DNA of 63,968 nt, filler included, from Stramenopiles sp. TOSAG23-2 (GCA_900128395.1; 3 parts of 3 records of this genome joined end to end with filler, not necessarily neighbours in it); one strand, 5' to 3'; positions 650-46,314 are shown, counted from the whole stretch's first letter. Notes: generated from the sequence alone by a model not told the origin. Made by a program: numbers and translations.

Positions 650-3600
650 ATGTCCACGTTACGTGTAGTTGAAGACCTTAGGCGTAAGAAGAACAGACAA
701 CGGCCATCTAGAAGAAAAACGAGGAAAAATGCATTAATTCAAGAACCAGTCACTTCATTATCAAGTTATTTAGATCAACCTGATGTAATATCAGAAATAT
801 TGAGTAGTACTATGCCTATCAATGCACAAACAAGAGAAGATTTCGCATCTATCCCCGTTCGTTATAGTAATAGCGCAAGCAGTTTTCCCCGTCCTTTGAA
901 TGCTATTAACGATGATCAATTCTATGATGATAATAATAACTACTACAGCAACAGTATTAGTCCTACAACAAATAATAATAATAATAATAATAATAACGAA
1001 ACTAGTCCATCAACAAATAGTCCCCCACCAGCAATAGCATCCATATCTTTGTCAGATATGATTGCAGAAAAAAAAGTCCCTGTGTTTTCGACTATATCTA
1101 AAGATATGAAAAAGAAAGTTGCACGCCTTCCAGATCCAAATGAATTCGAACAAAAAGTCTTAGATAGAATACAAAAAGAATATATAGATGGAGAAATTGA
1201 CTTGTCGTTAAATAGTCCAAGTCTATACAAAGGTTTAAAAAAAGGTGCACAAATAGCACGTCGCCGCTCTCTATTCGCAAAAAGGAGGCCATTTTTGAAA
1301 AAAACATCACATGTAAAAGAAAAACAACCAAGTCTTACGAAACAAATCAAACCATCATCATCATCATTACAACCACCACCAAAGTCTACCATATCAAGTT
1401 TGCCTAAGTCAGCCGTATCCACCTTAGTATCTGGAACTTCAGAAAGTATATACAGTAGTGGTAGTAGTAGTGGTAGTATTACTAACCGCAGTGACAGTAC
1501 AAACATTAGTGAAAGTATTGGGGATAGAACTATACGGAGTGGTACAAATATTGAGATTAATAAAAAAAAAGAAATACATGTTGACACCCTTACGAAACTC
1601 CAGGATGATGATGAAAATGTGAAAGATTTAAAAGATAATAATAACACAAAAGTTGACAATGCTGATAAAAAAAATGAAAAACAAGTTAAGAATGTTACTG
1701 AACCGCCTAGAACTGCTACTTCTTCTACTACGCCTCCAAAAACTGCTAGTAGCACACGAATTTTTGAAAAAATAGATACGATACAAGAGGAACCGGAATA
1801 TGGGGAAGATTATCGAAAAGATAGATTTGCACTTCCACCACCTGAAATTCCAGTCCATGATGTACTTGTGAAAAATCGAATTGAAGATGAAATGATAGAC
1901 TTAAATCAAAAACTGGAAGAAGCAGCTTTACGTCAACAACAAAGTATAGAAACGATTGAAAAAGACGTAAGAAAAAAAGCACGAAAATTGTTACATTATC
2001 AAGAGGTTCATCACATTCAAAGTAAAATGCAATATCAACATGCAGTACAAAAAGTGGAAGCAATTGATGATACAATAGAGAAAAAGATGCAGGAAGCCAG
2101 GGATTCATTGCCAGCTGATTTTATGTTTAAGCGCGGCCTTGGTGCATTTGTCATGGCACGCGGCGCCGAGGTCATCTTTAAAGTTTTTAAAAGATTTACA
2201 AACCAAATACTTCACAGTGGAATAGAACACTGGCAACAATATATCGAAATGCATAGAAAAGCAGAAAAAATTCGAGCGGCAATAGAAATTCAGAAAATAG
2301 TTAGAGGATCTCTTGCACGGAATGATCTAAAGTTGAGGAAAGCGGAAAAGATAATTCAAGACGAACGCGAGCAAGATCGTTTAGCACGTTTATATAAAAA
2401 AAGATATGATGCTGCGAAATTGATACAGGCACATGTTAGAGGAAATATAGGACGAAAAATAGTTGCAAAAATGAAGAAACGTTTAAGCTCTGTGTACGTC
2501 ATTCAGCGTTTTATTCGTATGACACAAGCTAAATTCTTTTTATTAGCAAAGCGTGCCATGTGGGAGAAACGAAAAAAATCTGTTACGGCAATTCAAGCGT
2601 GTTGGCGTGGATGTAAAGGGCGATATAGGGCAAAGATCGTTCGAAAAATTAGACGTGCTGAAAAATACGTAGAGTATGAAAAAGAAAAGCATGAAAATTT
2701 GCAAGAAATTTTTAAGCAAGAAGGTGCTGCAGTTAGCATACAATTATGGTGGACAATGGTTCGGCTTCGCCATGAATTTTTACGATTGCGTAAATTAATG
2801 AAACGACGTCGTGTGATGGTATTGCAAAGATCCTATCGTTGTTATCGGGCTCGGTGCGAACTAGCAAGGAGAAGAGAAGCCAAACGTTTAGAAGACATAC
2901 GAATAGACAAAGCTGCTAAATTAGTTCAAGCTGCATTTCATCGCAAACAAGCGTATAAAAAAGTTAGACAAATTATTAATGACCAGGAACAGAAAAAGAA
3001 GGAACACGATGAATATTTAATGCATCAAAAAGATGAGAAAAAAATACATCTAGTCGGTGGTGTTGATTTGAATCTAACAAAAATGAGGAGAAGGATGTTC
3101 AAGGCACGGAAACTTTTGAACCCATTTGAGTCGAAGCGTGAGGAAAAAGCTGCATTGAAAATACAGGCTGCATTCCGGGGTATGAAAAGTAGAAAACGTT
3201 TAAGAGAAGTTAGAAAGCATCATCATTTAGATTATAGACGAGAATTGAAGCACAAGCGTCTTGAAGCCTCGAAAACAATACAACGCTTTTGGAGAGGTCT
3301 AGTTGGACGACGGCTATTTCTAAAAGCACGACGGGTGCGAATGGCAATCAGAGTACAAGCTCGTTTTAGAGGGTGGAAAGGACGTCAGATTGCGTTAGAA
3401 GTTGGAATACGATGGTATGCTGCGATCAGAATCCAAGCCTTGTTTCGTGGATTTGTACAACGTTCTCATTTTACAGAATACTGCAGACATCAAACATTGG
3501 TGAAAACATCAGCTATTAGAATCCAAAAATACATTCGTGGGTTTACATGCCGACAAAAATACGGTGAAAAATTGGAACGGGAACGATATTTGGCCGAAAT

Positions 3601-6016
3601 TCGTATGCGCGGTAGAACAGAACTAGAAGCTTGCGCTATTATAGCGCGTGACAAATTGTTATTAAAAGCCTCAAAAGCAAAGGCTAAATTTGATGGAGCT
3701 ACGCAAGCTTTATTTCACATTTTAAAGGGCTTATCTAAATCAAAAGATGGAGTGGCACCAAAATCATTTTTAAAATTAGCAAAAGAGACGAAAATGATTG
3801 ATGATAAGCGGATTAAATTGAATACATGTGATCTTGCAGTATCGAAAGCAAAAGGTATAAGTAAAGCCAATGGTACAGGAACAGGGGCAGGTAATTTAAC
3901 ACACGCGGAATTAGTATATGCGCTACAATATCTAGCTAATAAGAAATATCCTAAATTGGAATCATTAAGAAGACATGAAGGCGACGATGCACGTTTTAAC
4001 AAATTTTGCTATGAATTCATATTTACAAATGGAAGAGGAAATGCCAAAGAGAAAAAACAGGCTTTGAAACGTTTACCAACATATTTAAGACCACTTGTAG
4101 CGAAAATGAAAGATATTCAAAATGCATATCTTGGAAAATATGCAAGGAAAATACAAGGGCATATGCGTGGTGAATTTGGTAGAAATTTATTCGAAGTTCA
4201 AAAAAGAAGAATTTTACAAGAGAGGGAAAGAAACAAGATGATCCGCGCGTCACTAATGATATCTAAGCGCCAACGAATTTTAAAGGCGCGAAAAGTGGTT
4301 GGTTCGATGGCAGCCAAAATTATACAAAAATTTGTAGATCCTTTAACAGGAGATATGTATTATTACAATCCAAGGACAAAGCAACGATCGTATGATAAAC
4401 CTGAAATTTTAGGAAAACAGGACGTTGAAAAGCCCTTCATTTTGCCGGATAAACATTACGAATTTGTAGTTAATTGTGCAAGTTGCAAAAGAAAAGTTGC
4501 TACGGTATTATGCGATCCATGCGGTGATGCATATTGCGATGATTGCTTTAAAAGTTTACATAGCAAAGGGAATAAATCTAAGCATCATAAAGATGCCATT
4601 CCAATGTGTTCATTTTGTGATTACCAAGCATGCACACGTTTTGATAGGTTTCATAAACAATGGTGTGATTCATGCTATGAGCATGTGTATGAAGACACTG
4701 CGCAAGCAAAAACTTTCACATGGAACATTTTACCATGTTCTGAATGCGAGGAAAGAGCGTGTAAATGGAGATGTTTAGAATGCGACGATTGTTATTGCAC
4801 TAAATGTTTTGGAAAAGTGCATCGAACGGGAAATCGCGCTTTGCATCGCAATGTTCCATTAGCATATTACACAGTTAAGATGGAAAATCAGAAATTAGCA
4901 ATGGAACGAGAGGCAAAACGAAAGATTGCTGCTGCTGAAGCCGCGAAACGAATGGCAGTTGATGATAAGATGAAATTGGAATTTATTGCAAGAAAACTGC
5001 AAGCTATATGGAGAGGAAGAAAAGGTCGCGCGGACGGTAAAAAATATTTGAAGCAAGAACGAAAAAAGATGCGTGTATTGTATAAGAAAACAAAGGAAGA
5101 CAATAAGACGAGAAAAACTATGTCATACGGATTAAAAAGTTTAATTGGTGTTGAAGAAATACTCGAAACAGATGATGCAGAAACAAGAGCAAGAAAGGAA
5201 AGATCGTTATTGCGAGATCCAAATAAAGCCATGAAACATTTCCAAGAGCATGCGTTTGAATTCCAAATCAAAGGGGAGGAAGGAAAGTTATTACCGTTTA
5301 AAGTCAATTGCTATCATTTAGAAGTCGAATTCGAAACACTTGGAGATTTAAGAGATCATTTAAAGCCAGGAGATTATATACGAATCGGTTATGCAGATCA
5401 TACAATCAATATGGATACAGAAGAACGAAATTATACACATCAATTCATGTGTTTAGATCGACCATGGGCAAATGCAGACCTATTGGATGCTAATATATAC
5501 AAAATGCGACCACCAGCGAGAAAGATTGGTTTATCAGCTGAAATTGGATCTTTAGCCGCAGATGCAACTAAAGGCATACGCGGTGTTCTTGCGGAAACTA
5601 GAGGAAGTTTGATTAAAAGAGTTTCGAAGAAGATTGGTGGTGCAAATAAAATGTTCAAAAGTAAATTGTTGGATAAAGCAGCAAAATATTATGACTCTGT
5701 AAGTCAACGCGAAATGAGTAAGTCGTTGCAAGAGGAACGCACCCCTGGCGCATTCGAGAAAGAAAGACGTTATTGGACCGAAAATTACGACGAATGGGGC
5801 ACACCTAGTTGGTACAATCGTATTACTGACGAGACTGTATCTGAAAAACCTGAATGTTTATTAAATAAAGAAGAGATGAAAGAATTCAAAGCAAAAGAAG
5901 CAATAAGAATAGCAAAAGAAGAAGAACTGAAAGCACAAAAACGTGAGTTGCAGTGGAAAAAGGAACAACGTGCAAAAGCGAAAGCTGGAAGAGGTAGAGG
6001 TGGAAGAAGGCGTTAA
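650..6016 (+). CDS. Large multidomain protein: low-complexity N-terminus, many IQ calmodulin-binding motifs, p25alpha/TPPP-like domain, two WW domains, 2-3 B-box zinc fingers
   Basis: 1788-aa intact ORF. More than 10 IQ-type motifs (e.g. IQKIVRGSLAR, IQAAFRGMKSR). p25alpha-like FLKLAKETKMIDDKRIKLNTCDLAVSK...ELVYALQYLANKKY (~3760-3950). WW-like DPLTGDMYYYNPRTKQRSYDKP (~4335-4400) and WTENYDEWGTPSWYNRITDETVSEKP (~5775-5850). B-boxes CxxC...CxxC...CxxC...H...H (~4475-4850). Confidence 0.85.
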   Translation: MSTLRVVEDLRRKKNRQRPSRRKTRKNALIQEPVTSLSSYLDQPDVISEILSSTMPINAQTREDFASIPVRYSNSASSFPRPLNAINDDQFYDDNNNYYSNSISPTTNNNNNNNNNETSPSTNSPPPAIASISLSDMIAEKKVPVFSTISKDMKKKVARLPDPNEFEQKVLDRIQKEYIDGEIDLSLNSPSLYKGLKKGAQIARRRSLFAKRRPFLKKTSHVKEKQPSLTKQIKPSSSSLQPPPKSTISSLPKSAVSTLVSGTSESIYSSGSSSGSITNRSDSTNISESIGDRTIRSGTNIEINKKKEIHVDTLTKLQDDDENVKDLKDNNNTKVDNADKKNEKQVKNVTEPPRTATSSTTPPKTASSTRIFEKIDTIQEEPEYGEDYRKDRFALPPPEIPVHDVLVKNRIEDEMIDLNQKLEEAALRQQQSIETIEKDVRKKARKLLHYQEVHHIQSKMQYQHAVQKVEAIDDTIEKKMQEARDSLPADFMFKRGLGAFVMARGAEVIFKVFKRFTNQILHSGIEHWQQYIEMHRKAEKIRAAIEIQKIVRGSLARNDLKLRKAEKIIQDEREQDRLARLYKKRYDAAKLIQAHVRGNIGRKIVAKMKKRLSSVYVIQRFIRMTQAKFFLLAKRAMWEKRKKSVTAIQACWRGCKGRYRAKIVRKIRRAEKYVEYEKEKHENLQEIFKQEGAAVSIQLWWTMVRLRHEFLRLRKLMKRRRVMVLQRSYRCYRARCELARRREAKRLEDIRIDKAAKLVQAAFHRKQAYKKVRQIINDQEQKKKEHDEYLMHQKDEKKIHLVGGVDLNLTKMRRRMFKARKLLNPFESKREEKAALKIQAAFRGMKSRKRLREVRKHHHLDYRRELKHKRLEASKTIQRFWRGLVGRRLFLKARRVRMAIRVQARFRGWKGRQIALEVGIRWYAAIRIQALFRGFVQRSHFTEYCRHQTLVKTSAIRIQKYIRGFTCRQKYGEKLERERYLAEIRMRGRTELEACAIIARDKLLLKASKAKAKFDGATQALFHILKGLSKSKDGVAPKSFLKLAKETKMIDDKRIKLNTCDLAVSKAKGISKANGTGTGAGNLTHAELVYALQYLANKKYPKLESLRRHEGDDARFNKFCYEFIFTNGRGNAKEKKQALKRLPTYLRPLVAKMKDIQNAYLGKYARKIQGHMRGEFGRNLFEVQKRRILQERERNKMIRASLMISKRQRILKARKVVGSMAAKIIQKFVDPLTGDMYYYNPRTKQRSYDKPEILGKQDVEKPFILPDKHYEFVVNCASCKRKVATVLCDPCGDAYCDDCFKSLHSKGNKSKHHKDAIPMCSFCDYQACTRFDRFHKQWCDSCYEHVYEDTAQAKTFTWNILPCSECEERACKWRCLECDDCYCTKCFGKVHRTGNRALHRNVPLAYYTVKMENQKLAMEREAKRKIAAAEAAKRMAVDDKMKLEFIARKLQAIWRGRKGRADGKKYLKQERKKMRVLYKKTKEDNKTRKTMSYGLKSLIGVEEILETDDAETRARKERSLLRDPNKAMKHFQEHAFEFQIKGEEGKLLPFKVNCYHLEVEFETLGDLRDHLKPGDYIRIGYADHTINMDTEERNYTHQFMCLDRPWANADLLDANIYKMRPPARKIGLSAEIGSLAADATKGIRGVLAETRGSLIKRVSKKIGGANKMFKSKLLDKAAKYYDSVSQREMSKSLQEERTPGAFEKERRYWTENYDEWGTPSWYNRITDETVSEKPECLLNKEEMKEFKAKEAIRIAKEEELKAQKRELQWKKEQRAKAKAGRGRGGRRR

Positions 6017-6638
6017 AAAATTTATGCAACTTATTGAGAAGAGCAACCAAGACTATTTTTCTAATAAACTAAATTTATATTTTAAAAGTAAATTAAATTT
6101 AAAAGTGAAAGTTTATTAATACCTCACGTATACTTCAACTACTTTGGTTTATATTGTTGTTTCCTATTATTAATACCACGTAGCATAAAATAGCTAGGAA
6201 ATATTGTACTATTAATATTAAATCATCAGCAAAAATCAAAGGCAGGAAAATAATAGGAAAATCAGACCAAAATTTACTAGGCAGTAACAGGTAACAGGCC
6301 GTAATGCCGTAAGCTGGTAAGCAGGTAAAATAGTTTTTGTCAAATTGTTGCCATTTTGATCTCATTTTCCCCATACTGTGTAGTTTTAAATTGTATTTAT
6401 AACAGCACAGTATTGGATCAAAAATCTGATCGAACTAACAACGAAGAGGCGACTAGATCGCACAGTGCAAAAAAGAAAAAAGGGGCGCACCATCTGCAGG
6501 GGGGACACACATAAAAATAATACAGTAATTTTAAAAACTAACCGTAGCTTTAGTTTAATGGTCACACCAAAACATTATTTACCAGACATTGTATCATTGT
6601 GTATATTTAGAGACTCATGGAACAATATGTATAATACC

Positions 6639-9600
6639 ATGTCACGTCAAACATTAGTTTTTTTGTCTGTGTTCTTATTAGTGTCGACCTTGTCACAAGT
6701 TAATGGGGAAAATAGTAAAATTAGCACGTTTGAAGCTGCAGATAATGCGCTTTTTGTTGCAACTATAGGATTTTCTGGTCCAGCTATTACAAGCTATCAA
6801 CAAGAAAATTTACATAATGCATTGTTTGATAATAAGAATGAGGACAAAATAGAAGAGGATCACTGGAAAGACGTTTCTATTATGATGGAAGGTGCAAAAG
6901 CGTTGGCAAAAGTACAGCCACCACAAGCTGAAATGCGATTTATGAGAACTAAAAGTCAATTACAAGTAAAAGGCATTGCAAGTGTTGTTGTTAAAGCAAT
7001 GAAGGAGGCGTTCAAGTGGGTAGTGAAAATGTTGAAAGCAGCTATGAAAAAGGCTGTTGATATCATGAAAGCAGCTTTTGCAAAGCTTCAAGAATTGGCG
7101 AAAAAAGCATTTGAACAGTCTCTTGAGTTATTACAGAAGGCACAGGATGCAATTGCAAATGCTGGAGAACTAATAAAAGACGGCTATCAACAATGTAAGG
7201 ACCAGTTGCTACAATATAAAGACACATTAAAGGATCAGTGGAAAACTATTAAAGAGAAAGGAAAAGAAGCCTTAGGCAATATGAAAGATAAGTTTAAAGA
7301 TAGATTGAAGAAATGCAAAGATGAAACTTTAAGTTTTAAAAACCAAATTCCTACTAATGGAGAAGATATCAAAGCGATGATGCAAGAAACATTAAATAAG
7401 GAAAATCTAGAAAAACAGATACGTAGTGTCGCCAGTGATTATGTAGAGAAAAAGACAGGCATTAGCAAAGAAATGTTAAAAGACACAGATGCTATGAAAG
7501 GAGCTTTGAAAAACAAAGCGTTGGATACTTTAGAACAAAAGACAGGTATTAGCAAAGAAATGTTACAAGACACAGATGCTATGAAAGGAGCTTTGAAAAA
7601 CAAGGCGTTGGATACTTTAGAACAAAAAACAGGATTGGATCAAGGTGCTTTTTCCTCAAAAGAAGCTTTTAAAGCTGGACTTTCTCAAAAGTACAAGGAG
7701 GAAAAAGAAAATTTACAAGAGAAGGGGTTAGCATATGCTGAACAAAAAACAGGCATTAGTAAGGACGTACTCACGGATCCTAAAGCTATGAAAGCAGAAA
7801 TGGCTAAAAAGTTTGAAGAGAAAAAAGAAGAAGGATGGAAATTGATGGAACAACATACAGGACTCAGTAGAGAAGTTTTAAATGATCCAAATGCTTTGAA
7901 ACAAGAAATAAAAAAAAAAATCGATGAACAAAAAGAAGTAGCATGGAAAGCAATGGAACAAAAAAACTGGTTTGAGTCGTGATGTAATTTCTTCAAAGGA
8001 AAGCATGAAGGAAGAATTAAGATCACAAATGAAAGATGTAGAAGAGAAATCATGGAAATCGATTGAAGAACATACCGGTCTTAGTAAAGATGCATTGCTA
8101 GATAAAAATGCAATTAAGAATTTAGTTACGGAAAGAGCGAATATAGAAAAAAATAAAATCGCAGACAAAGTAAATGAGGCGAAAAATCAATTCAGCAAGG
8201 GAAGAAAAGAGGTATTAGCAAAATATAATGACGAAAAAAGTAAGATTTTGAAAACTTTTGATGATGCAAAGTCAAATTTAATAAAAGAAAAAGATGCACT
8301 TGTTAATAAATATAATGAAAAAATGGAAAATTTGGTTGCAACCCACATATGGGAGCAATTGGAAGAACAGACCGGTATTAGTAGCGACAAATTAAAGAAC
8401 AAGGAATATTTGAAGGCATTAGCGTACAAAAAAGTAAACGATGCAACAAAAGATGCAGAGTCGCTGGTCGATGAATTGAAAAAAAATACGGCAGTTAACC
8501 CATTAGAAGACGCTGAAAAGTTAGCTTTATTATTACATGAAAACAAAGTACTTCAAAAAGCTCTTGGAGTCGTAAACAAAGAGAATAGTCAAACTCAAAC
8601 ATCTTTATTCATTGAAATTAAGTCGCAAACACAAATGCCAGCCTTTGTTAAAGAAATAAATGCATTAAGAACGGACATTGAGACAAGTTTCTTAGAAGTT
8701 GTTGATGGAAAAAACCTCAATGAATATAACGCGCCTGGCTATGAAGCTGCAGTTAAATCCGTAAACAAGAAGTATATGCATGCAATTTTAAATCATTACG
8801 ATGTGAATCTGTCGGATGAACGTCTATCAAAGGTACATAGAGCTGCTAGTTTATTGGAGAAAGAACACCGCTTACTTCAGCATGGTAAAATCAAGAAAAT
8901 TAGTGATGATATTGAGACAAAATTTGACAATGCATTTTTAGAGACAGGAATGTCAACGAAACATACCGAATCAAGGGCTTTATTTTCTAAACGAGGGGGT
9001 GAAGATGATGAAGAAGAAGGAGAGGAAGACGGCGAAGTACCGAAGCGATCAAGGCGCCTTCTTTTTGGTAAGAAGGCGCGCAAAAAGGCGAAAAAAGGAC
9101 TTAAAAAAATTGGTAAAAAAATTAAGAAAGGAGTGAAAAAAGTAGGCCAGGCAGTAAAAAAGGGAGTAAGAGCAGTCAAAAAATTTGCTAAGAAGAATTT
9201 TTTCAATGTTGGTAAAAAACTTAGAAAGAAATTTAAGAAAGGTTTAAAGAAATTTGGACAAAAAGTTTACAAAGGGGTGAAAAAAATAGGAAAGTTTGTT
9301 GTCAAGGGCATTAAAAAAGCGTTTAAATTTATTTTGAAACATAGCCCTGTTCATGCATTTTTCAATGCGCTTATAAATTGTAAAGGTGGAGTCGGAAAAT
9401 GCCTCGGAACGGCTTTTAAAAAGCTGGGCGAGGCATTTGCTAATTTGATGACAGGTGGGCAGTACGGCAAAATTATGAAATGCATAGAGAATGAAAAAAA
9501 GAAAGGGAAAAAGAGCTCCCGTGCCCGAGCGCATTGTATTGGCGAATCATTGAAACGTATTGCAACCGCAGCTTTAGATGCTGCGGCTTTTATACCGGGT

Positions 9601-11040
9601 GTTGGGCAAATCATAGATGCGGCACGGACAGGAGTTGAAGTCGCCCTTCAAATCAAGGCACAACATGATATGAAGAGAAAAATGAAACGGGATAAAAAGA
9701 AAGCTTTAGAGCAAGAGAAGAAGAACAATGAAGCGATCACAAAAACACAGGAAAGAAAATACGCTGAAATAAGAGAGCAAGCAGAAAATGGAAAATTGAC
9801 CTTGACGAAATCTTCAATAGCCGAAGCTGCAGAAAAAGCGAAATCTTACATGGCAGATGTGAAAAATAAATATAAAAATCCTCTGGAAGATTACCAAGCT
9901 GAGGTCGATGCTGACGATTTTGCAGATGATGTAAAAGAAGCTGCCGCTAAAGGGGAAAAGAAAGGAGAATCAATAATTAGTAAAAATAAAAATTATGCAA
10001 AAGCTATGTCAATGCATATGAAAATGAAAAGGGCAGCAATGAAAATGAAGTTAAGAGGGAAGAAAAATTTAAGAAGACGATTATTGAACAGACAAAGCGA
10101 AAGAGGACAACGTCTATTTAAAAAGAAAAAAAAGAAGAAGAAGAAAAAGAAGAAGAAGGCTAAACTACCAACAAAGCCAAAAGGGGGTCCATATTGTAAA
10201 TGCGAAACGCCAACAGAGACTGCAACTAAAGGTAAAAATGCAATTGTATGTGATAATGATGAAAAATATTATTGCGAAGATGATCAGACATGTGCAACTG
10301 ATGTCACGATGAAATTAGCAGATAGACTACATCTTTGCACATATCCTACAAACTTGCCGCTGGAGATGATATACACAGAAAAAAAATGTTTTTGGGGAAC
10401 TCGAGCCCTCGATGACAAAGAGTATATAAAAGTTTATGATATCGAAGAATGCCACGAGGATTGTGTAGGACGTGATGATTGTTCCGGTGCAACATACGAT
10501 AAAAACGAAAAGAAATGTTTTCTTCGTGGTGGTTTTAGTGATCCAGTTATGGAAGATTGTAAAGAAGGCCTCGTTGGTTTAACAAGAACAACAGAAGAAG
10601 AAAAATTGAAAGTTGATGTCCTCAATGATTTAAATAACGAACGCAAAGTGAAACAGTTAACAAATGATAAAAAGGAGGCAGATGAGGAGGAAAAGAAAGA
10701 TGAGGAGGAAGTGAAGAAGATGGATAAAGATGCGGAAAAAATGAGGAAAAAGTTAAATGGAGACATAGCTAAAAAAGCAAAAGAAATGGAAGCAAAGATG
10801 AAACTAGAAAGTAAGAAAATAAGTGAAAAAATACAAAATGCTAAAAAGAAAGCAAATGACGATTTAAAAAAGCAAGGGGACAAGCTTGAAAAACAGATTG
10901 CAAAAGCAAAAAAAGAAGGAAAAGCAAAAGTGGACAAATTTAAAAAAGATGCTAAGAAAAAGGCAAAAGAAATGGGGAAAAAGCTAGGGAAAAAATTTGA
11001 AAAGTGTATGAAGAAGGGTGGTCTAGAAGCGTGGGTTTAA
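6639..11040 (+). CDS. Putative secreted precursor polyprotein (signal peptide, 29-33-aa EQKTG(I/L)S repeats, cationic amphipathic block, PT-TG-like motif, Cys-rich/PAN-Apple domain, Lys-rich coiled-coil tail); one frameshift at A7 run 7960-7966
   Basis: Joins ORFs 6465-7982 and 7972-11040. ATG 6639 gives the signal-peptide-like MSRQTLVFLSVFLLVSTLSQVNG. Deleting one A from 7960-7966 restores the repeat EQKTGLSRDV. PAN-like ECHEDCVGRDDCSGATYDKNEKKCFLR at ~10447-10527. Confidence 0.75.
7446..7632 (+). repeat. 87-bp (29-codon) near-identical coding tandem repeat, ~2 copies, within a longer degenerate protein repeat array
   Basis: gacagg[c/t]attagcaaagaaatgtta... starts at 7454 and 7541 (offset 87). 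Confidence 0.95.
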
Positions 11041-11227
11041 AATTCGTGTGCGTGTATATATATTTAAAGTCGTGTACTATTGCTGATTGTGTATTTGTGT
11101 ATTTGTGTATTTGTGTTAGTGTACTGGTACTGCCACTATTTTAATTTTTCATTTTTCATAATTGATACGAAATGATAGAATTCATAAAATACAAGCAATT
11201 ATACTTGTGTGCTTGTGCCATATTAAT

Positions 11228-11359
11228 AACAGCCATTTCTGAATGGGGTGCGACCGTGCGAGGCAGCTACGTAGATTTGGACCTGGAACGTGGAAATGCC
11301 TCTGCCAGTCTGTGGTGTCGAGAAGCCGAGGGGAGGATCGACAACAACAACAGCCATTT
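11228..11359 (+). mobile_element. Short GC-rich insert with (CAA)n tail flanked by an 11-bp direct repeat (SINE or 5'-truncated LINE-like)
   Basis: AACAGCCATTT at 11228-11238 and 11349-11359. The ~110-bp interior is far more GC-rich than the flanks and ends in gacaacaac. Confidence 0.5.
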
Positions 11360-11660: not shown

Positions 11661-13031
11661 ATGAGTTTTGCTTTTAGTTTCATTCGTTATGCTGCAATAT
11701 GGGTATTTACGTTTGCTTCAATCATTTTTGTTGCAAATTTACATCGTATACAGTATGCTACAGTGGATAGAAATCCAGCGTATACACACAAAATGATAGT
11801 ACATAAAAATACGACATTGTTGGCAAAAGTATCAGAAGTAATTGATACACATAAGGCAGCACATTACCTTTCTGAACATGCTGAAGATGCATGGAGAAAT
11901 TCAAGGTTTCATAATGATATTAATAATTTAGCAGAAGCAACAAGAATAAAAGTTTCAGACAACAAAGTTACGTATGTATATGTACACGTCCCACGCACAG
12001 CAGGTGATAGCTTGCAAACACATTTATTTCCTATCCCTGAAGAGCAAACGCATGTAGATTCTGCATGGTGGGGTAGCACAGGTGTGCCAGACTTAGTAGC
12101 TTCTTTGAATTATCCAAAATCTTGGAAAGTAGACAATTACAAACGTCTGTACAAAGGTTTTTGGTCAAGAGACAGAGTTATAAACGTGATTAAAAATGCT
12201 ACAATTGGAAAACGAGGAACTGCGTTTGATACATCGACAAATAATATCAGAATGTTTACCATATTACGACATCCACATGAACGTATATGTTCCAATTATA
12301 AATTTTTCAAAGCACATGGTGTATTACCTCGTGCAGTTTGTAATGTAAATAAAAATAAAAATACCACTAATAAACAAGACAATAAATGTTGTCCAAGTAA
12401 AGGATTGTTAATAGATTATTTAAAGCGTGTATTAATTAAACATCCAAAACAATTAGAAAAAAAAGGATCATGCCCATTAAATGGGAACGAATGGAAAATG
12501 AAAAGTTTTATGGATAATGAAATGGCATATCAACTTGGTAATATCATGGAAGCTTTTAAACGTGATGTAAAACCGAAAGTTGCACTAGAACGTGGTAAAA
12601 ATTTTTTAGATATGATGGATTTTATTGGATTTTATGAAGATTGGAATACAGATTTTCATCGATTAAAGCATGATATATTCCATGATTTAGATAGCGAGGG
12701 CAATACATGGATAAAGTGGTTTCGGCAAGAAATTTTTTTTCTTGGTACATTTGCTGCAAGAAATCGTATGCGTACATTAAAATATAGTGGTGGTGTCCAC
12801 GGGGAGACAAGAACATTAATGGAAGAAGCGACAAAATTTGATATGGAAATTTATAAATATGCACGTCGTAAAATGGGACGTAGTGAAGATGGCGGCTTAT
12901 TCAAAAGTTACAACGAATGGCTTTTAAAAGAAGCTGTACCATTTGGCGCTTTTTCTCTAATTTTCTTATTTATATGCCGTCGTTATTGTACTTGTCTTTG
13001 TTGTACTTTTTGCCAAGAGAAAAGAACGTAA
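11661..13031 (+). CDS. Membrane-anchored sulfotransferase-family protein (Sulfotransfer_2/Gal3ST-like)
   Basis: 5'-PSB-like YVHVPRTAGDS and 3'-PB-like TILRHPHERICSNY motifs. N-terminal hydrophobic anchor and C-terminal TM with a Cys-rich tail. First in-frame ATG at 11661 (ORF track starts at TTG 11574). Confidence 0.75.
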   Translation: MSFAFSFIRYAAIWVFTFASIIFVANLHRIQYATVDRNPAYTHKMIVHKNTTLLAKVSEVIDTHKAAHYLSEHAEDAWRNSRFHNDINNLAEATRIKVSDNKVTYVYVHVPRTAGDSLQTHLFPIPEEQTHVDSAWWGSTGVPDLVASLNYPKSWKVDNYKRLYKGFWSRDRVINVIKNATIGKRGTAFDTSTNNIRMFTILRHPHERICSNYKFFKAHGVLPRAVCNVNKNKNTTNKQDNKCCPSKGLLIDYLKRVLIKHPKQLEKKGSCPLNGNEWKMKSFMDNEMAYQLGNIMEAFKRDVKPKVALERGKNFLDMMDFIGFYEDWNTDFHRLKHDIFHDLDSEGNTWIKWFRQEIFFLGTFAARNRMRTLKYSGGVHGETRTLMEEATKFDMEIYKYARRKMGRSEDGGLFKSYNEWLLKEAVPFGAFSLIFLFICRRYCTCLCCTFCQEKRT

Positions 13032-21656: not shown

Positions 21657-22356
21657 CTATGCTTTTAAAGACATATTTTTAGAAACACTCTCCTTGTTTT
21701 CATTTGTTTGTTCTTTGTCTTCTTCTTTTTCTGGTAAACATAAATCGCCATATTCTCCATCAATTAATAAACCGTATTGCCATAAACCTTTCTTTTCCCC
21801 AAGTTGCTGATTCTTTTCATGTTCCTCACGTTGTTTGTTGCAANNNNNNNNNNNNNNNNNNNTCAATTAATAAACCGTATTGCCATAAACCTTTCTTTTC
21901 CCCAAGTTGCTGATTCTTTTCATGTTCCTCACGTATTTGTTTTTCATCACCTTTCCAATCTTCATATTTTTCTATGTTTTGTATACCTAACAAACGACAT
22001 GCTTTAATACGAATTTCAACTTCATCCCATTCTGGTAATAATTTTCTTCGTATTTCTGACCAATGACAAATACCATAATGCTGAATACCCTCTTTAAGCA
22101 ACGAATCCTCCGCGTTGCCCCAAACTAAATTTTCAGCATTACGAGGTTTAAAATACATCGAATCAAAACGACCTTCAGCATCTATCATTTCTGCTGGACA
22201 TAAATGTCGTCTCATTTTTAATATCCACTCTTCATCACGTTCATTTTCCGGTGGTGGCAATGGTACGACTACTACTGGCGCCGTCGCTTCCTCCCCTTCT
22301 TTCTCCACCTCCATGGGCGTTCCATTCGTATTATTATTATCCACAATCGCTGCCAT
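21657..22356 (-). CDS. Myb/homeobox-like protein resembling p2 (AMTP2) of the MTA1c/AMT1 DNA N6-adenine methyltransferase complex; interrupted by an assembly gap with duplicated flank
   Basis: Pattern MRRHL...G.FDSMYF...W...EDSLLKEGIQHYGICHWSEI...VEIRIKACRLLGIQNIEKY...N...G resembles ciliate p2 as recalled from memory. Removing the 103-bp duplicate plus gap gives one in-frame 198-aa ORF. Confidence 0.7.
21760..21934. other. Assembly gap (19 N, 21844-21862) flanked by an exact 72-bp duplication (unmerged overlap)
   Basis: 21760-21831 is identical to 21863-21934. Confidence 0.9.
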
Positions 22357-23089: not shown

Positions 23090-23189
23090 NNNNNNNNNNN
23101 NNNNNNNNNNNNNNNNNNNNNNNNNNNNNNNNNTTAATTAATTAANNNNNNNNNNNNNNNNNNNNNNNNNNNNNNNNNNNNNNNNNNNN
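23090..23189. other. Artificial contig-joining linker N44-TTAATTAATTAA-N44 (stop codons in all six frames)
   Basis: Exactly 100 nt and identical to the linker at 46215-46314. Confidence 0.97.
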
Positions 23190-33436: not shown

Positions 33437-35348
33437 TCAATCCCCCTTCCCAGGTCTTCCTTTAATATTGACTCTAATAGGTATTCCATTCATATCAAAT
33501 TCTTCTTTTAATAAATTGATTAAAAAACGTACGTAATGCGTTGGTATTGTTTTAGGATTTTTATTACTAAAAAATACAAAAGATGGTGGCCGTGAACTAA
33601 TTTGTGTACAATATTTAATTTTTCCACCACCTGGTATAGGTCTTGTACGTTGAATTTCTTGTATCCAACGATTTAAAATTCCTGTTTTGATATATGTATT
33701 CCATTTCTCATATACGTCTAATACATTATCTAATATAATATTAGTATTTTTACCATCCAATGCAGAAATTGGTACTACTGGTACACTGTGTGTGTGTTTA
33801 TTTATGTATGTATGTGTATTGTTAGTCGAGTTTACATATATATACGATTTTCGTTTTATATGTATATATATATATATACATATATATAATAATAAATACA
33901 TACCCTCTTGCTTGTGGTATAGCACTGTAAATAATATCTTCCACTGATTCTTGTATCCATTCATATGTTATTACTTGACCGTCCATCATATTGTTTTCCA
34001 TTAAATCACATTTATTTGCAAGGATTACTAATCCACGGCCTTCTTCACAAATTTGACCAATTAATGCTTTGTCATCTTTAGTTGGTGGCAACGTTGAATC
34101 CATTACTAATACGGCTACATGTGCATGTTTAATAGCATGCGATGTTTCCAACGCAGCCCATCGTTCAATGGAGGTTTCCGTATTTCGTTTTGGTATTTTT
34201 AACATTCTACGTATTCCAGCTGTATCTATTAATCGAATACATGAAGTTGGATCGGTTGGGTGTTCCATATCGATTCGTATAGGATCACGTGTCACACCAG
34301 CCATTGGACCAGTTAAAACACGTTGTGAATCTAATAATTGATTTAATAATGTTGATTTTCCAACATTTGGTTTTCCAACAATTGCTAATTGTAATGGCGG
34401 TTTTACTCCAGCATCCATCATATTATCCTTTACCATCGAATCATTACCATCATTTGTTTCTGTTGTGCTCATAGTATCCTCTTTTTTCTTTTCTTCTAAT
34501 TCATCTAATAAATCAAGATATAAATCACTTAAACCATGTCCATGTTCCCCACTTATGAATATTGGATGGCCAAACCCAAGTTTCAAACATTCTGCATTGA
34601 CGGAATGGATAATAGCATCATCGTCTAATATATTATCAATTTTATTTACGACAACGAAAGTTTTACATACAGCCTCTTTACGTAACCATTTTGCAAAATG
34701 TTCATCAACTGCTGTTACACCATCTTGTGCATCGATTAAAAATAATATTAAATTAGATTTACAAATTGCTTCTTTTGTTAAAAATAACATTTCCTCCTCC
34801 AATGATATAGATGTTTCTTCCAATCCTGCTGTATCAACAATCTTAAACGATAGATCCGATAATGAACCAATTGATTCTCGAAAATCACGCGTGGTACCAG
34901 GTTTATCATTCACAATTGCCACTCGTCTTCCAACAAAGCGATTGAATAAACGTGATTTACCAACGTTTGGTCTTCCAACTAACGTAATTGTTTTTAATAA
35001 ATGTTCTTCCTCTTGATTTGGATTTAATCGTTTTGAACGTTCCATACGTTTCACACGCCTTTGTTCGCGTTTAATATGTGTTTTTAAATTGGTTTTAAAT
35101 TGTACAGATGGTTTTGTAGAAAAGAAACGTATCATATTATTGTTTAAAAATAATCGTTGTTGTTGTTGATGTTGGTTATTACTATTATTATTAAAATGGT
35201 AAATGCATTTATTATTTATAAATGGTATGATTGTTGTTGATAAAAAATATTTCCTTTTAATCATACTTTTCACATGATTTACATATTGTTTTTTCATTGA
35301 AGTATTACGATTATTATGTCGTACATGGTGTAAAATGACACGTCGCAT
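33437..35348 (-). CDS. der: Der/EngA double GTPase, probably mitochondrial; exons 35348-33904 and 33785-33437
   Basis: Two G-domains (GRPNVGKS/GTTRD/DTAG/NKID and GKPNVGKS/GVTRD/DTAG/NKCD) and a KH-like tail (KIKYCTQISSRPPSF...GIPIR). GTATGT...CAG intron 33903-33786 joins ARG-VPVVPISAL in frame. Basic N-terminal presequence. Confidence 0.93.
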
Positions 35349-35590
35349 GGTTGTTGTGTGGTTGTTTGTTTTCTGATTATATATTATACTATGCCTGTGG
35401 TTCACACTACACACTCTGTTTTGTAATGTGTATTATATGTTGTTGTTTTATTCATAAAAATCAGGTTGAAATTGACTTTTTACAGGTGCATGCATGCATG
35501 CAATGCATCAATGGGAAAGAGTAGAAAAAATAGGAATCAATCACGGATAGAAAAACATAAATCAACAAATATATTCCATTTCATCTAATC

Positions 35591-46214: not shown

Positions 46215-46314
46215 NNNNNNNNNNNNNNNNNNNNNNNNNNNNNNNNNNNNNNNNNNNNTTAATTAATTAANNNNNNNNNNNNNNNNNNNNNNNNNNNNNN
46301 NNNNNNNNNNNNNN
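46215..46314. other. Artificial contig-joining linker N44-TTAATTAATTAA-N44
   Basis: Identical to 23090-23189. Confidence 0.97.

Follow-up and report, generated by a model that had tools for sequence, protein, structure and literature searches.

PAN domains are an extracellular type of domain and bind glycans, and in apicomplexans they form the micronemal PAN lectins and adhesins (e.g. MIC4, PDB 4a5v, and the microneme antigen L2, PDB 2yil). Linear cationic antimicrobial peptides (AMPs) of the cecropin and magainin type, as well as designed peptides of the KLAKKLA type, follow a KKxxKKx periodicity with a high hydrophobic moment, are devoid of acidic residues and have a basic motif upstream. 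Saposin-like pore formers, such as the amoebapores and naegleriapores, are small basic disulfide-braced helical bundles that derive from larger secreted precursors of phagotrophs. The sequence RRLL is a substrate motif of S1P-type subtilases. Diatoms process secreted precursors at RXL motifs, among them RRIL and RRNL, and the diatom precursor Sil1p combines a signal peptide with an acidic and a Lys-rich part (PMC4557024). Here we analyze a gene at positions 6639-11040 (plus strand) of a 63,968-nucleotide stretch of DNA, filler included, from Stramenopiles sp. TOSAG23-2 (GCA_900128395.1), to which we refer as the window. The predicted product has traits in common with each of these systems, and its architecture and central core appear to be undescribed as far as database and literature searches reach. 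We tentatively propose, at somewhat less than an even chance, that it is a lectin-guided protein that binds membranes or polyanions and that is matured at an RxLL linker.

The locus is a single intact, intron-free and transcribed gene with a product of ~1466 aa. In the window it appears as two long open reading frames (ORFs) in different frames, 6465-7982 and 7972-11040, whose translations we term the N-part (P0001) and the C-part (P0002). Word-indexed searches of 5.8 billion proteins gave two relatives for the C-part, P0003 (746 aa, 54% identity) and P0004 (1016 aa, 48%), and for the N-part they gave P0207, a 95% identical fragment with the source label “merc”, and P0208 (45% identical). Among 1.84 billion representatives, a HMMER scan with a three-sequence profile returned 82 matches at E<=0.001; seven of them are true family fragments, and the others cover PAN positions or Lys-rich positions only. 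There is no paralogue of the gene within the window, and no NCBIfam family matched any of three queries. As judged from these searches, the family is confined to about three related lineages. A scan of metagenome contigs left one locus out of 481 pattern matches, L001, which is identical to P0004. This contig (1-2853) is chimeric, as the protist gene breaks off abruptly after ...RIVCDNN, and the sarcosine-oxidase-like genes behind it share 84% identity with Lentibacter (Rhodobacterales); it therefore provides no genomic context. Literature searches on secreted PAN proteins and Naegleria and on phagocytosis and antimicrobials of MAST-4 revealed no described relative. A first-pass annotation of the window had read the locus as a secreted, RRLL-processed polyprotein outside described families; all sequence features that it listed are present where it had placed them, and only PAN was recognized in Pfam, NCBIfam, PDB-sequence and ESM Atlas searches.

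A 92-aa polycationic amphipathic helix extends over 9064-9339, with 41 K/R, no D/E and no Ser, as deduced from composition and hydrophobic moment. Its mean helical hydrophobic moment is 0.68 versus 0.26 +/- 0.05 in shuffled sequences, and none of 1000 shuffles reached this value. The same tract has a moment of 0.65 in P0003 and 0.70 in P0004, versus ~0.25 in the respective shuffles, again with 0/1000 reaching either value, and the Lys-rich amphipathic tract noticed in the first-pass annotation is thus genuine. As this amphipathicity is retained while the sequence is only 49% (P0003) and 41% (P0004) identical, selection acts on the pattern. The idea that small peptides are released from this region did not hold up, as there is no R-x-L-L or dibasic-plus-spacer motif inside the 92 residues, and the tract runs unbroken into the first helix of a conserved core.

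This core, at 9340-9660, is helical and contains four Cys as well as the A/G-rich LDAAAFIPGVGQIIDAA (9574-9624). With 77% identity to P0003 and 74% to P0004, and with a mean column identity of 85% in the core alignment (A3), it is among the most conserved parts of the protein. The four Cys are residues 472, 479, 506 and 524 of the C-part, with the spacing C-x6-C-x26-C-x17-C. The core found no relative in Pfam (E<=10), NCBIfam, PDB sequences or the ESM Atlas, where the best score of 0.80 is at chance level. AlphaFold2, run on three-sequence alignments, produced all-helical models with pLDDT values of 43.7 (661 aa) and 47.9 (core, 146 aa), of which the secondary structure alone is usable. In the cores of P0003 and P0004, a histidine ladder at i, i+4, i+8 and i+12 (KHSPVHAFLHALIHC) aligns to 9340-9381; in the window, the last two of the four positions are Asn. 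With such a ladder, the first core helix could have a face that binds metal or senses pH.

It had been suggested that the protein includes a module that resembles the PT-TG pre-toxin domain of bacterial polymorphic toxins. If so, it might derive from such a toxin module acquired by a eukaryote. To the eye, FIPGVGQIIDAARTG indeed recalls the P...TG pattern, and nothing else points in this direction. PF14449 gave no match at E<=10 with the core alone, and hhalign of the core profile against two PF14449 stretches, taken from three matching genomes among 401 searched, gave a probability of 0.95%, with an aligned part outside the FIPGVG segment and with both profiles being shallow. Moreover, the second TGE..S element of the bacterial sequences is missing here, and the core is followed by a charged linker, the PAN module and a helical tail instead of a C-terminal toxin domain. 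A scan of prokaryote genomes with the core confirmed 0/123 pattern matches as relatives, with patterns that derived from the Lys-rich end of the core and not from the FIPGVG segment. The PT-TG-like label is therefore not supported, and an origin from a bacterial toxin is extremely improbable.

The Lys helix is directly preceded by a linker (8986-9063) that carries SRALF, an acidic spacer GGEDDEEEGEEDGE (8995-9036) and KRSRRLL. The RRLL at 9052-9063 constitutes the candidate processing site 1. RRLL occurs twice, with 0.011 occurrences expected from composition, and two occurrences were reached in only one of 5000 shuffles. At site 1, R343, L365, L366 and G368 are invariant in all three sequences, and R-x(1-2)-L-L-x-G is kept: the window reads RRLLFG, P0003 reads RSTLLVG with RTLL just upstream, and P0004 reads RQLLSG. 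In all three lineages, the R-x-L-L element is found exactly at the start of the cationic tract. A candidate cleavage motif of the type R-x-(hydrophobic)-L, which is the S1P consensus, is thus present in a linker of this secretory protein in the window, P0003 and P0004. RxL(L/F) occurs only three times in the C-part, and no R.LL, RR.L or R.L[LF] motif is found within the first 442 residues. The sites are more than 800 residues away from the N-terminus, and there is no RxLR-type motif soon after the signal peptide, as it would be typical for oomycete RxLR effectors in their usual definition.

A charged helical linker, RRRLL and a basic tract with K13 occupy 9661-10191, with RRRLL (site 2) at 10072-10086 and K13, a run of 13 mixed AAA/AAG codons, at 10120-10158. 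In this region, identities to P0003 and P0004 are 36% and 31% for the charged linker and 19% and 14% for the basic tract. The near-identical fragment P0011 retains RRRLL. Of the two RRLL processing sites that had been predicted, site 1 thus stands as R-x-L-L in 3/3 lineages, and site 2 is missing from both distant homologues. If site 2 were cut as well in the lineage of the window, the piece between both sites would have 341 aa, 38 kDa, a pI of 10.4 and a net charge of +67, as computed.

A precursor with a signal peptide, RR-x-L motifs, an acidic stretch and a basic Lys-rich part, in a host that may be a stramenopile, recalls Sil1p (PMC4557024), and the protein might be imagined to be a silaffin-like biomineral protein, i.e. 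an RXL-processed Lys-rich precursor that guides silica deposition. Against this, the Lys tract has no Ser in 92 residues and a strict helical periodicity, which contrasts with the Ser/Lys-rich silaffin units; the tract is a helical amphipathic and not a disordered one. The RXL motifs do not mark the ends of repeated units, so that Ser/Lys-rich repeat units that each end in RXL are not what we found, and the acidic stretch is missing from the homologues. The large conserved folded modules of the protein are a further difference to Sil1p. We thus regard a silaffin-like function as very improbable. The conserved RxLL linker suggests that secretory processing of the RXL type, as in diatom wall proteins, may occur more widely among related protists.

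Downstream of the basic tract, a 12-Cys module at 10192-10644 comprises a six-Cys region, a PAN/Apple domain (~10366-10575) and the near-invariant GLTRTTEEEKLKVDVLNDLNNER, as delimited by Pfam and alignment. PAN_1 (PF00024) scored above its Pfam cut-off of 21.4 in the window (26.4 and 29.4 bits), P0003 (23.7) and P0004 (30.8), and the PAN domain recognized in the first-pass annotation is therefore real. The PAN core Cys pattern C-x3-C-x5..7-C-x11-C, in its canonical form, is present in ECHEDCVGRDDCSGATYDKNEKKC, and these Cys are invariant in 3/3 sequences. A profile search of PDB sequences gave weak PAN matches to 4a5v (E 0.001) and 2yil (E 0.005), and the rest was low-complexity noise; the PAN region of the structural model has pLDDT values of 25-45. 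Identities to P0003 and P0004 are 72% and 67% for the Cys-rich region, 64% and 65% for PAN, and 96% each for the 23-mer behind it. By sequence, PAN is the sole known family in the protein. With the micronemal PAN proteins, the product shares a signal peptide and a disulfide-rich PAN module, but here a single PAN domain is part of an otherwise helical and highly basic protein that does not have the micronemal architecture. The protein ends with a K/E-rich helical tail (10645-11040; 44% identical in P0003, 32% in P0004) that closes with EKCMKKGG... before the stop codon and whose hydrophobic moment is 0.41 versus 0.21 in shuffles.

How could these modules work together? With its signal peptide and its disulfide-rich module of the lectin type, the protein belongs to the secretory pathway. 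There, an endopeptidase of the diatom RXL type or of the S1P type could cut at the RxLL linker, which would free the basic C-terminal product. The PAN module would dock this product on a glycan-bearing target, such as a prey envelope or a particle, and the Lys helix together with the core would bind anionic membranes or polymers and possibly permeabilize them. The Lys tract and the core would act as one unit and not as a string of small released peptides. Among the known systems, the protein may thus work most like a lectin-linked cationic binder of membranes or polyanions, and by its sequence it is a member of the PAN superfamily only.

The main rival reading involves no lysis. The protein could be a non-lytic extracellular adhesin or matrix protein, in which PAN binds glycans, the Lys-rich helices bind polyanions such as sulfated polysaccharides, extracellular DNA or mineral surfaces, the repeats of the N-terminal half serve as spacers, and processing is incidental. 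The PAN domain of secreted adhesins is the only recognized family, the linkers have drifted whereas the core and the PAN module have remained highly conserved, the tail and the linkers are long charged helices, and the helix of P0004 has an Ala/Gly-rich face. A sub-threshold sulfotransferase match of the neighboring gene would fit as well, but only at the level of a coincidence. What such an adhesin would not demand is the strict amphipathicity of a 90-aa tract in three lineages, which exceeds the need for simple charge, nor the conservation of the RxLL element exactly at the tract start. We regard the adhesin or matrix function as a serious, albeit doubtful, possibility. If it applies, the gene encodes a surface or matrix protein that is specific to its lineage, with modest interest in general.

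Several observations weigh against the proposed lectin-guided, RxLL-matured binder. The acidic spacer is lineage-specific, as it is missing from both distant homologues, and it is far too short to neutralize the +41 of the Lys tract. RRRLL and K13 are likewise absent from these two homologues, which read MALLEV at that place. In P0004, the non-Lys face of the helix consists mostly of Ala and Gly, which brings it nearer to polyanion-binding tracts than to membrane-inserting peptides. The core ranks with the best conserved parts, which fits a specific role in binding or structure better than a generic membrane attack. No fold or family of pore formers was detected in Pfam, PDB-sequence or NCBIfam searches, and the models have low confidence (pLDDT 44 and 48). 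The placement of the host among stramenopiles comes from one protein and a limited tree. Finally, activity, localization and cleavage of the product are predicted from sequence.

The Lys tract shares with linear cationic AMPs the KKxxKKx periodicity, the high moment, the lack of acidic residues and a basic motif directly upstream. It differs from AMP precursors in that one 92-aa helix is fused to a conserved core, where AMP precursors contain short excised peptides, and in that conservation is higher in the “cargo” than in the “pro-region” and does not extend to the anionic pro-piece. Of the traits expected for an AMP precursor, the signal peptide and the cationic amphipathic helix (in three lineages) are present, and a conserved anionic pro-piece and excision sites for short peptides are not, as only the upstream site is conserved. 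Of the AMP-like precursor suggested initially, the cationic amphipathic helix therefore remains, and the acidic pro-piece, K13 and the second RRRLL do not extend to the distant homologues. Also the expected conserved pro-region with variable cargo turned out to be reversed: the repeats of the N-terminal half are 30% identical, the core 74-77%, and a series of paralogues was not found. With saposin-like pore formers, the core has in common that it would be a small, basic, disulfide-braced helical bundle from a larger secreted precursor, but it has four Cys and not the six-Cys pattern known for that family, and there is no SapB match in Pfam.

In its most far-reaching form, the proposal would state that the Lys helix and the four-Cys core represent a new fold class of lectin-guided polycationic membrane-attacking proteins, which is released by RxLL cleavage from an apolipoprotein-like, masking N-terminal half and used by uncultured marine bacterivorous flagellates for killing or opening their prey. 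We consider this extended version unlikely. The molecular means by which small uncultured flagellates recognize and kill bacterial prey in the ocean are largely unknown. The gene, which is expressed in several independent seawater metatranscriptomes, joins a lectin domain to a cationic amphipathic helix of exceptional length and to a conserved core that has not been classified. If the protein is indeed membrane-active, it would provide a concrete candidate effector that can be expressed, as well as a new scaffold for antimicrobials, and if prey killing is its function, it would be the first molecular prey-killing factor for such ocean grazers.

The N-terminal half begins with a signal peptide at 6639-6707, in which MSRQ is followed by the hydrophobic TLVFLSVFLLVSTL and by SQVNG, with V at -3 and G at -1; the N-terminus of the protein, as read from 6639, is MSRQTLVFLSVFLLVSTLSQVNG. 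The n-, h- and c-regions were read from the sequence, and the most hydrophobic 19-mer of the N-part lies in the signal peptide. There is no other hydrophobic span besides it; the best 19-mer scores 1.55. An in-frame ATG at 6627 is an alternative start that would add MYNT. The homologue P0208 has its own signal-like start, MRTNVVVCALLLAAVLPLQG, which agrees with the signal peptide that had been proposed for the window. The region that follows (6708-7412) has a conserved block DHWKDVSIMMEG...EMRF...AMKEAFKWV...LKAAMKKA, amphipathic helices and two Cys, is 45% identical in P0208, and has a hydrophobic moment of 0.40 versus 0.22 in shuffles.

Eight helical repeats of ~29-40 aa, each with a hinge of the type E-x-x-TG(I/L)(S/D), occupy 7413-8445, as established by motif counts and tblastn self-matches. 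The number of eight agrees with the initial description; five lie upstream of a frame break, one spans it and two lie downstream. They match no Pfam family; P0003 does not cover them, and in P0004 they are 30% identical. A conserved helical segment at 8683-8985 (FLEVVD..YN.P.YEAA...AIL.HY.V.LS.ERL...AASLLE..H.LL) is 67% identical in P0003 and 48% in P0004; it belongs to no Pfam family, and the ESM Atlas contained no usable match. The Pfam matches of the N-terminal half are sub-threshold only and concern apolipoprotein, ApoLp-III, phasin and perilipin (E 0.004-0.03). Exchangeable apolipoproteins, phasins and perilipins share long runs of amphipathic helices with the protein, but the scores are far below the cut-offs (e.g. 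14.6-21.7 versus 90 bits). These matches therefore indicate amphipathic helices, i.e. a likeness of composition, and no family membership.

With its signal peptide, candidate processing sites and long helical segments, the protein could in principle be cargo of a regulated secretory organelle, such as an extrusome or a dense-core granule, where it would be stored as a processed precursor, as had been considered initially. However, no family of extrusome proteins was matched in the Pfam and HMMER searches, and the paralogue family with variable cargo was not found, since the 82 matches include only the seven same-family fragments and the window contains no paralogue. No result supports an extrusome role, and we regard it as quite unlikely.

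As mentioned above, the reading frame is broken in the window. The break is due to an A7 run at 7959-7965 (GAACAAAAAAACTGG), which has one A in excess. We aligned contigs from four public runs to 6300-11300, namely a polyA metatranscriptome (X3), a metatranscriptome (X8), a DNA run (X7) and a fourth run (X17) that does not cover the A7. At 7960, every contig that covers the A7 has one letter fewer, which applies to all three covering runs, two of RNA and one of DNA (depth 12.2/12.2 in X3, 6.45/6.45 in X8 and 15.5/15.5 in X7), and the database fragment P0007 reads MEQKTGLSRDV in a single frame across the break. As the runs of other samples and P0007 lack the extra A, the gene is intact elsewhere, and the A7 in the window is a homopolymer error or a private change. 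The frameshift noticed in the first-pass annotation is thus a real feature of the window. We also considered programmed frameshifting at the A-run but rejected it, since DNA and RNA from other samples simply have one A fewer. In the same gene, an A11 run at 7910-7920 has an extra A behind 7909 in X3 only (0/6.45 in X8, 0/35.6 in X7). As the length of this run differs between the runs, homopolymer lengths of this gene are unreliable in assemblies. The frame break is also what would speak for a pseudogene or an assembly artefact. As the extra A is missing from the covering runs, as several studies have the gene in their RNA libraries, and as the homologues show constraint at the level of modules, such an explanation is highly improbable.

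The RNA contigs are colinear with the window over 6622-7509, 7574-9063, 9034-10115 and 10166-10987, without joints in three RNA runs; their starts fall at 6602-6645 and their ends at 10983-11093. Contigs in RNA libraries alone are no proof of transcription. The RNA depth is 0 at 6300-6466 and at 11143-11300, both of which are covered by the DNA run. At least 87% of the sampled words are contained in 20 of 24 listed runs; 11 of these 20 are RNA, the 20 runs come from nine studies of seawater or marine samples, and polyA metatranscriptomes are among the libraries that contain the gene. Together, this indicates a transcribed, intron-free gene of a marine organism, and the protist host that had been assumed agrees with these data. 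In the DNA run X7, a second contig set of lower depth has many substitutions at 8647-8769 and 10569-10675, which points to a related strain or species that co-occurs and has this gene as well.

The host is an uncultured marine protist, probably a stramenopile, as far as sequence comparison can place it. The window has a G+C content of ~32% and is dense in eukaryotic nuclear genes, which encode an IQ/B-box protein, the large subunit of DNA primase, condensin subunit 2, a DEP-domain kinase, a CDC14-like phosphatase, an RCC1-BTB protein and a kinase of the mitochondrial branched-chain ketoacid dehydrogenase kinase family. In agreement with the initial view, the gene is eukaryotic and its product is secreted and modular; it is also lineage-restricted. 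The primase has unnamed relatives at 99%, 78% and 71% identity; its best named relatives are oomycetes and other stramenopiles (43-48%), followed by animals (41-45%). In a 34-row primase tree, the window and four unnamed rows are on the same side of a 100/100 split as all eight named stramenopiles, with the Metazoa on the opposite side. Naegleria, which we had first considered as the host, was discarded in view of the primase relatives, this tree and the marine runs. The rows of this single-protein tree are stramenopile, metazoan or unnamed, and because no other supergroup is included, “probably stramenopile” is the limit of the placement.

As to the neighborhood, the product of the upstream gene (650-6016, plus strand) has 1788 aa and contains numerous IQ motifs as well as B-box zinc fingers and a tract rich in Asn, and runs of Asn and Thr occur in several proteins of the window. 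The product of the downstream gene (11661-13031, plus strand) has an N-terminal hydrophobic stretch and a sub-threshold match to Sulfotransfer_2 (E 0.0055, 17.3 bits versus a cut-off of 22). Farther away, a double-GTPase gene (two MMR_HSR1 domains, Der/EngA-like; 33437-35414, minus strand) is seemingly split into the overlapping ORFs 33437-33964 and 33822-35414, which suggests a short intron or another frame error. The window as a whole is a gapped scaffold with five N blocks of 195 bases in total (e.g. 21844-21862, 23090-23189 and 46215-46314).

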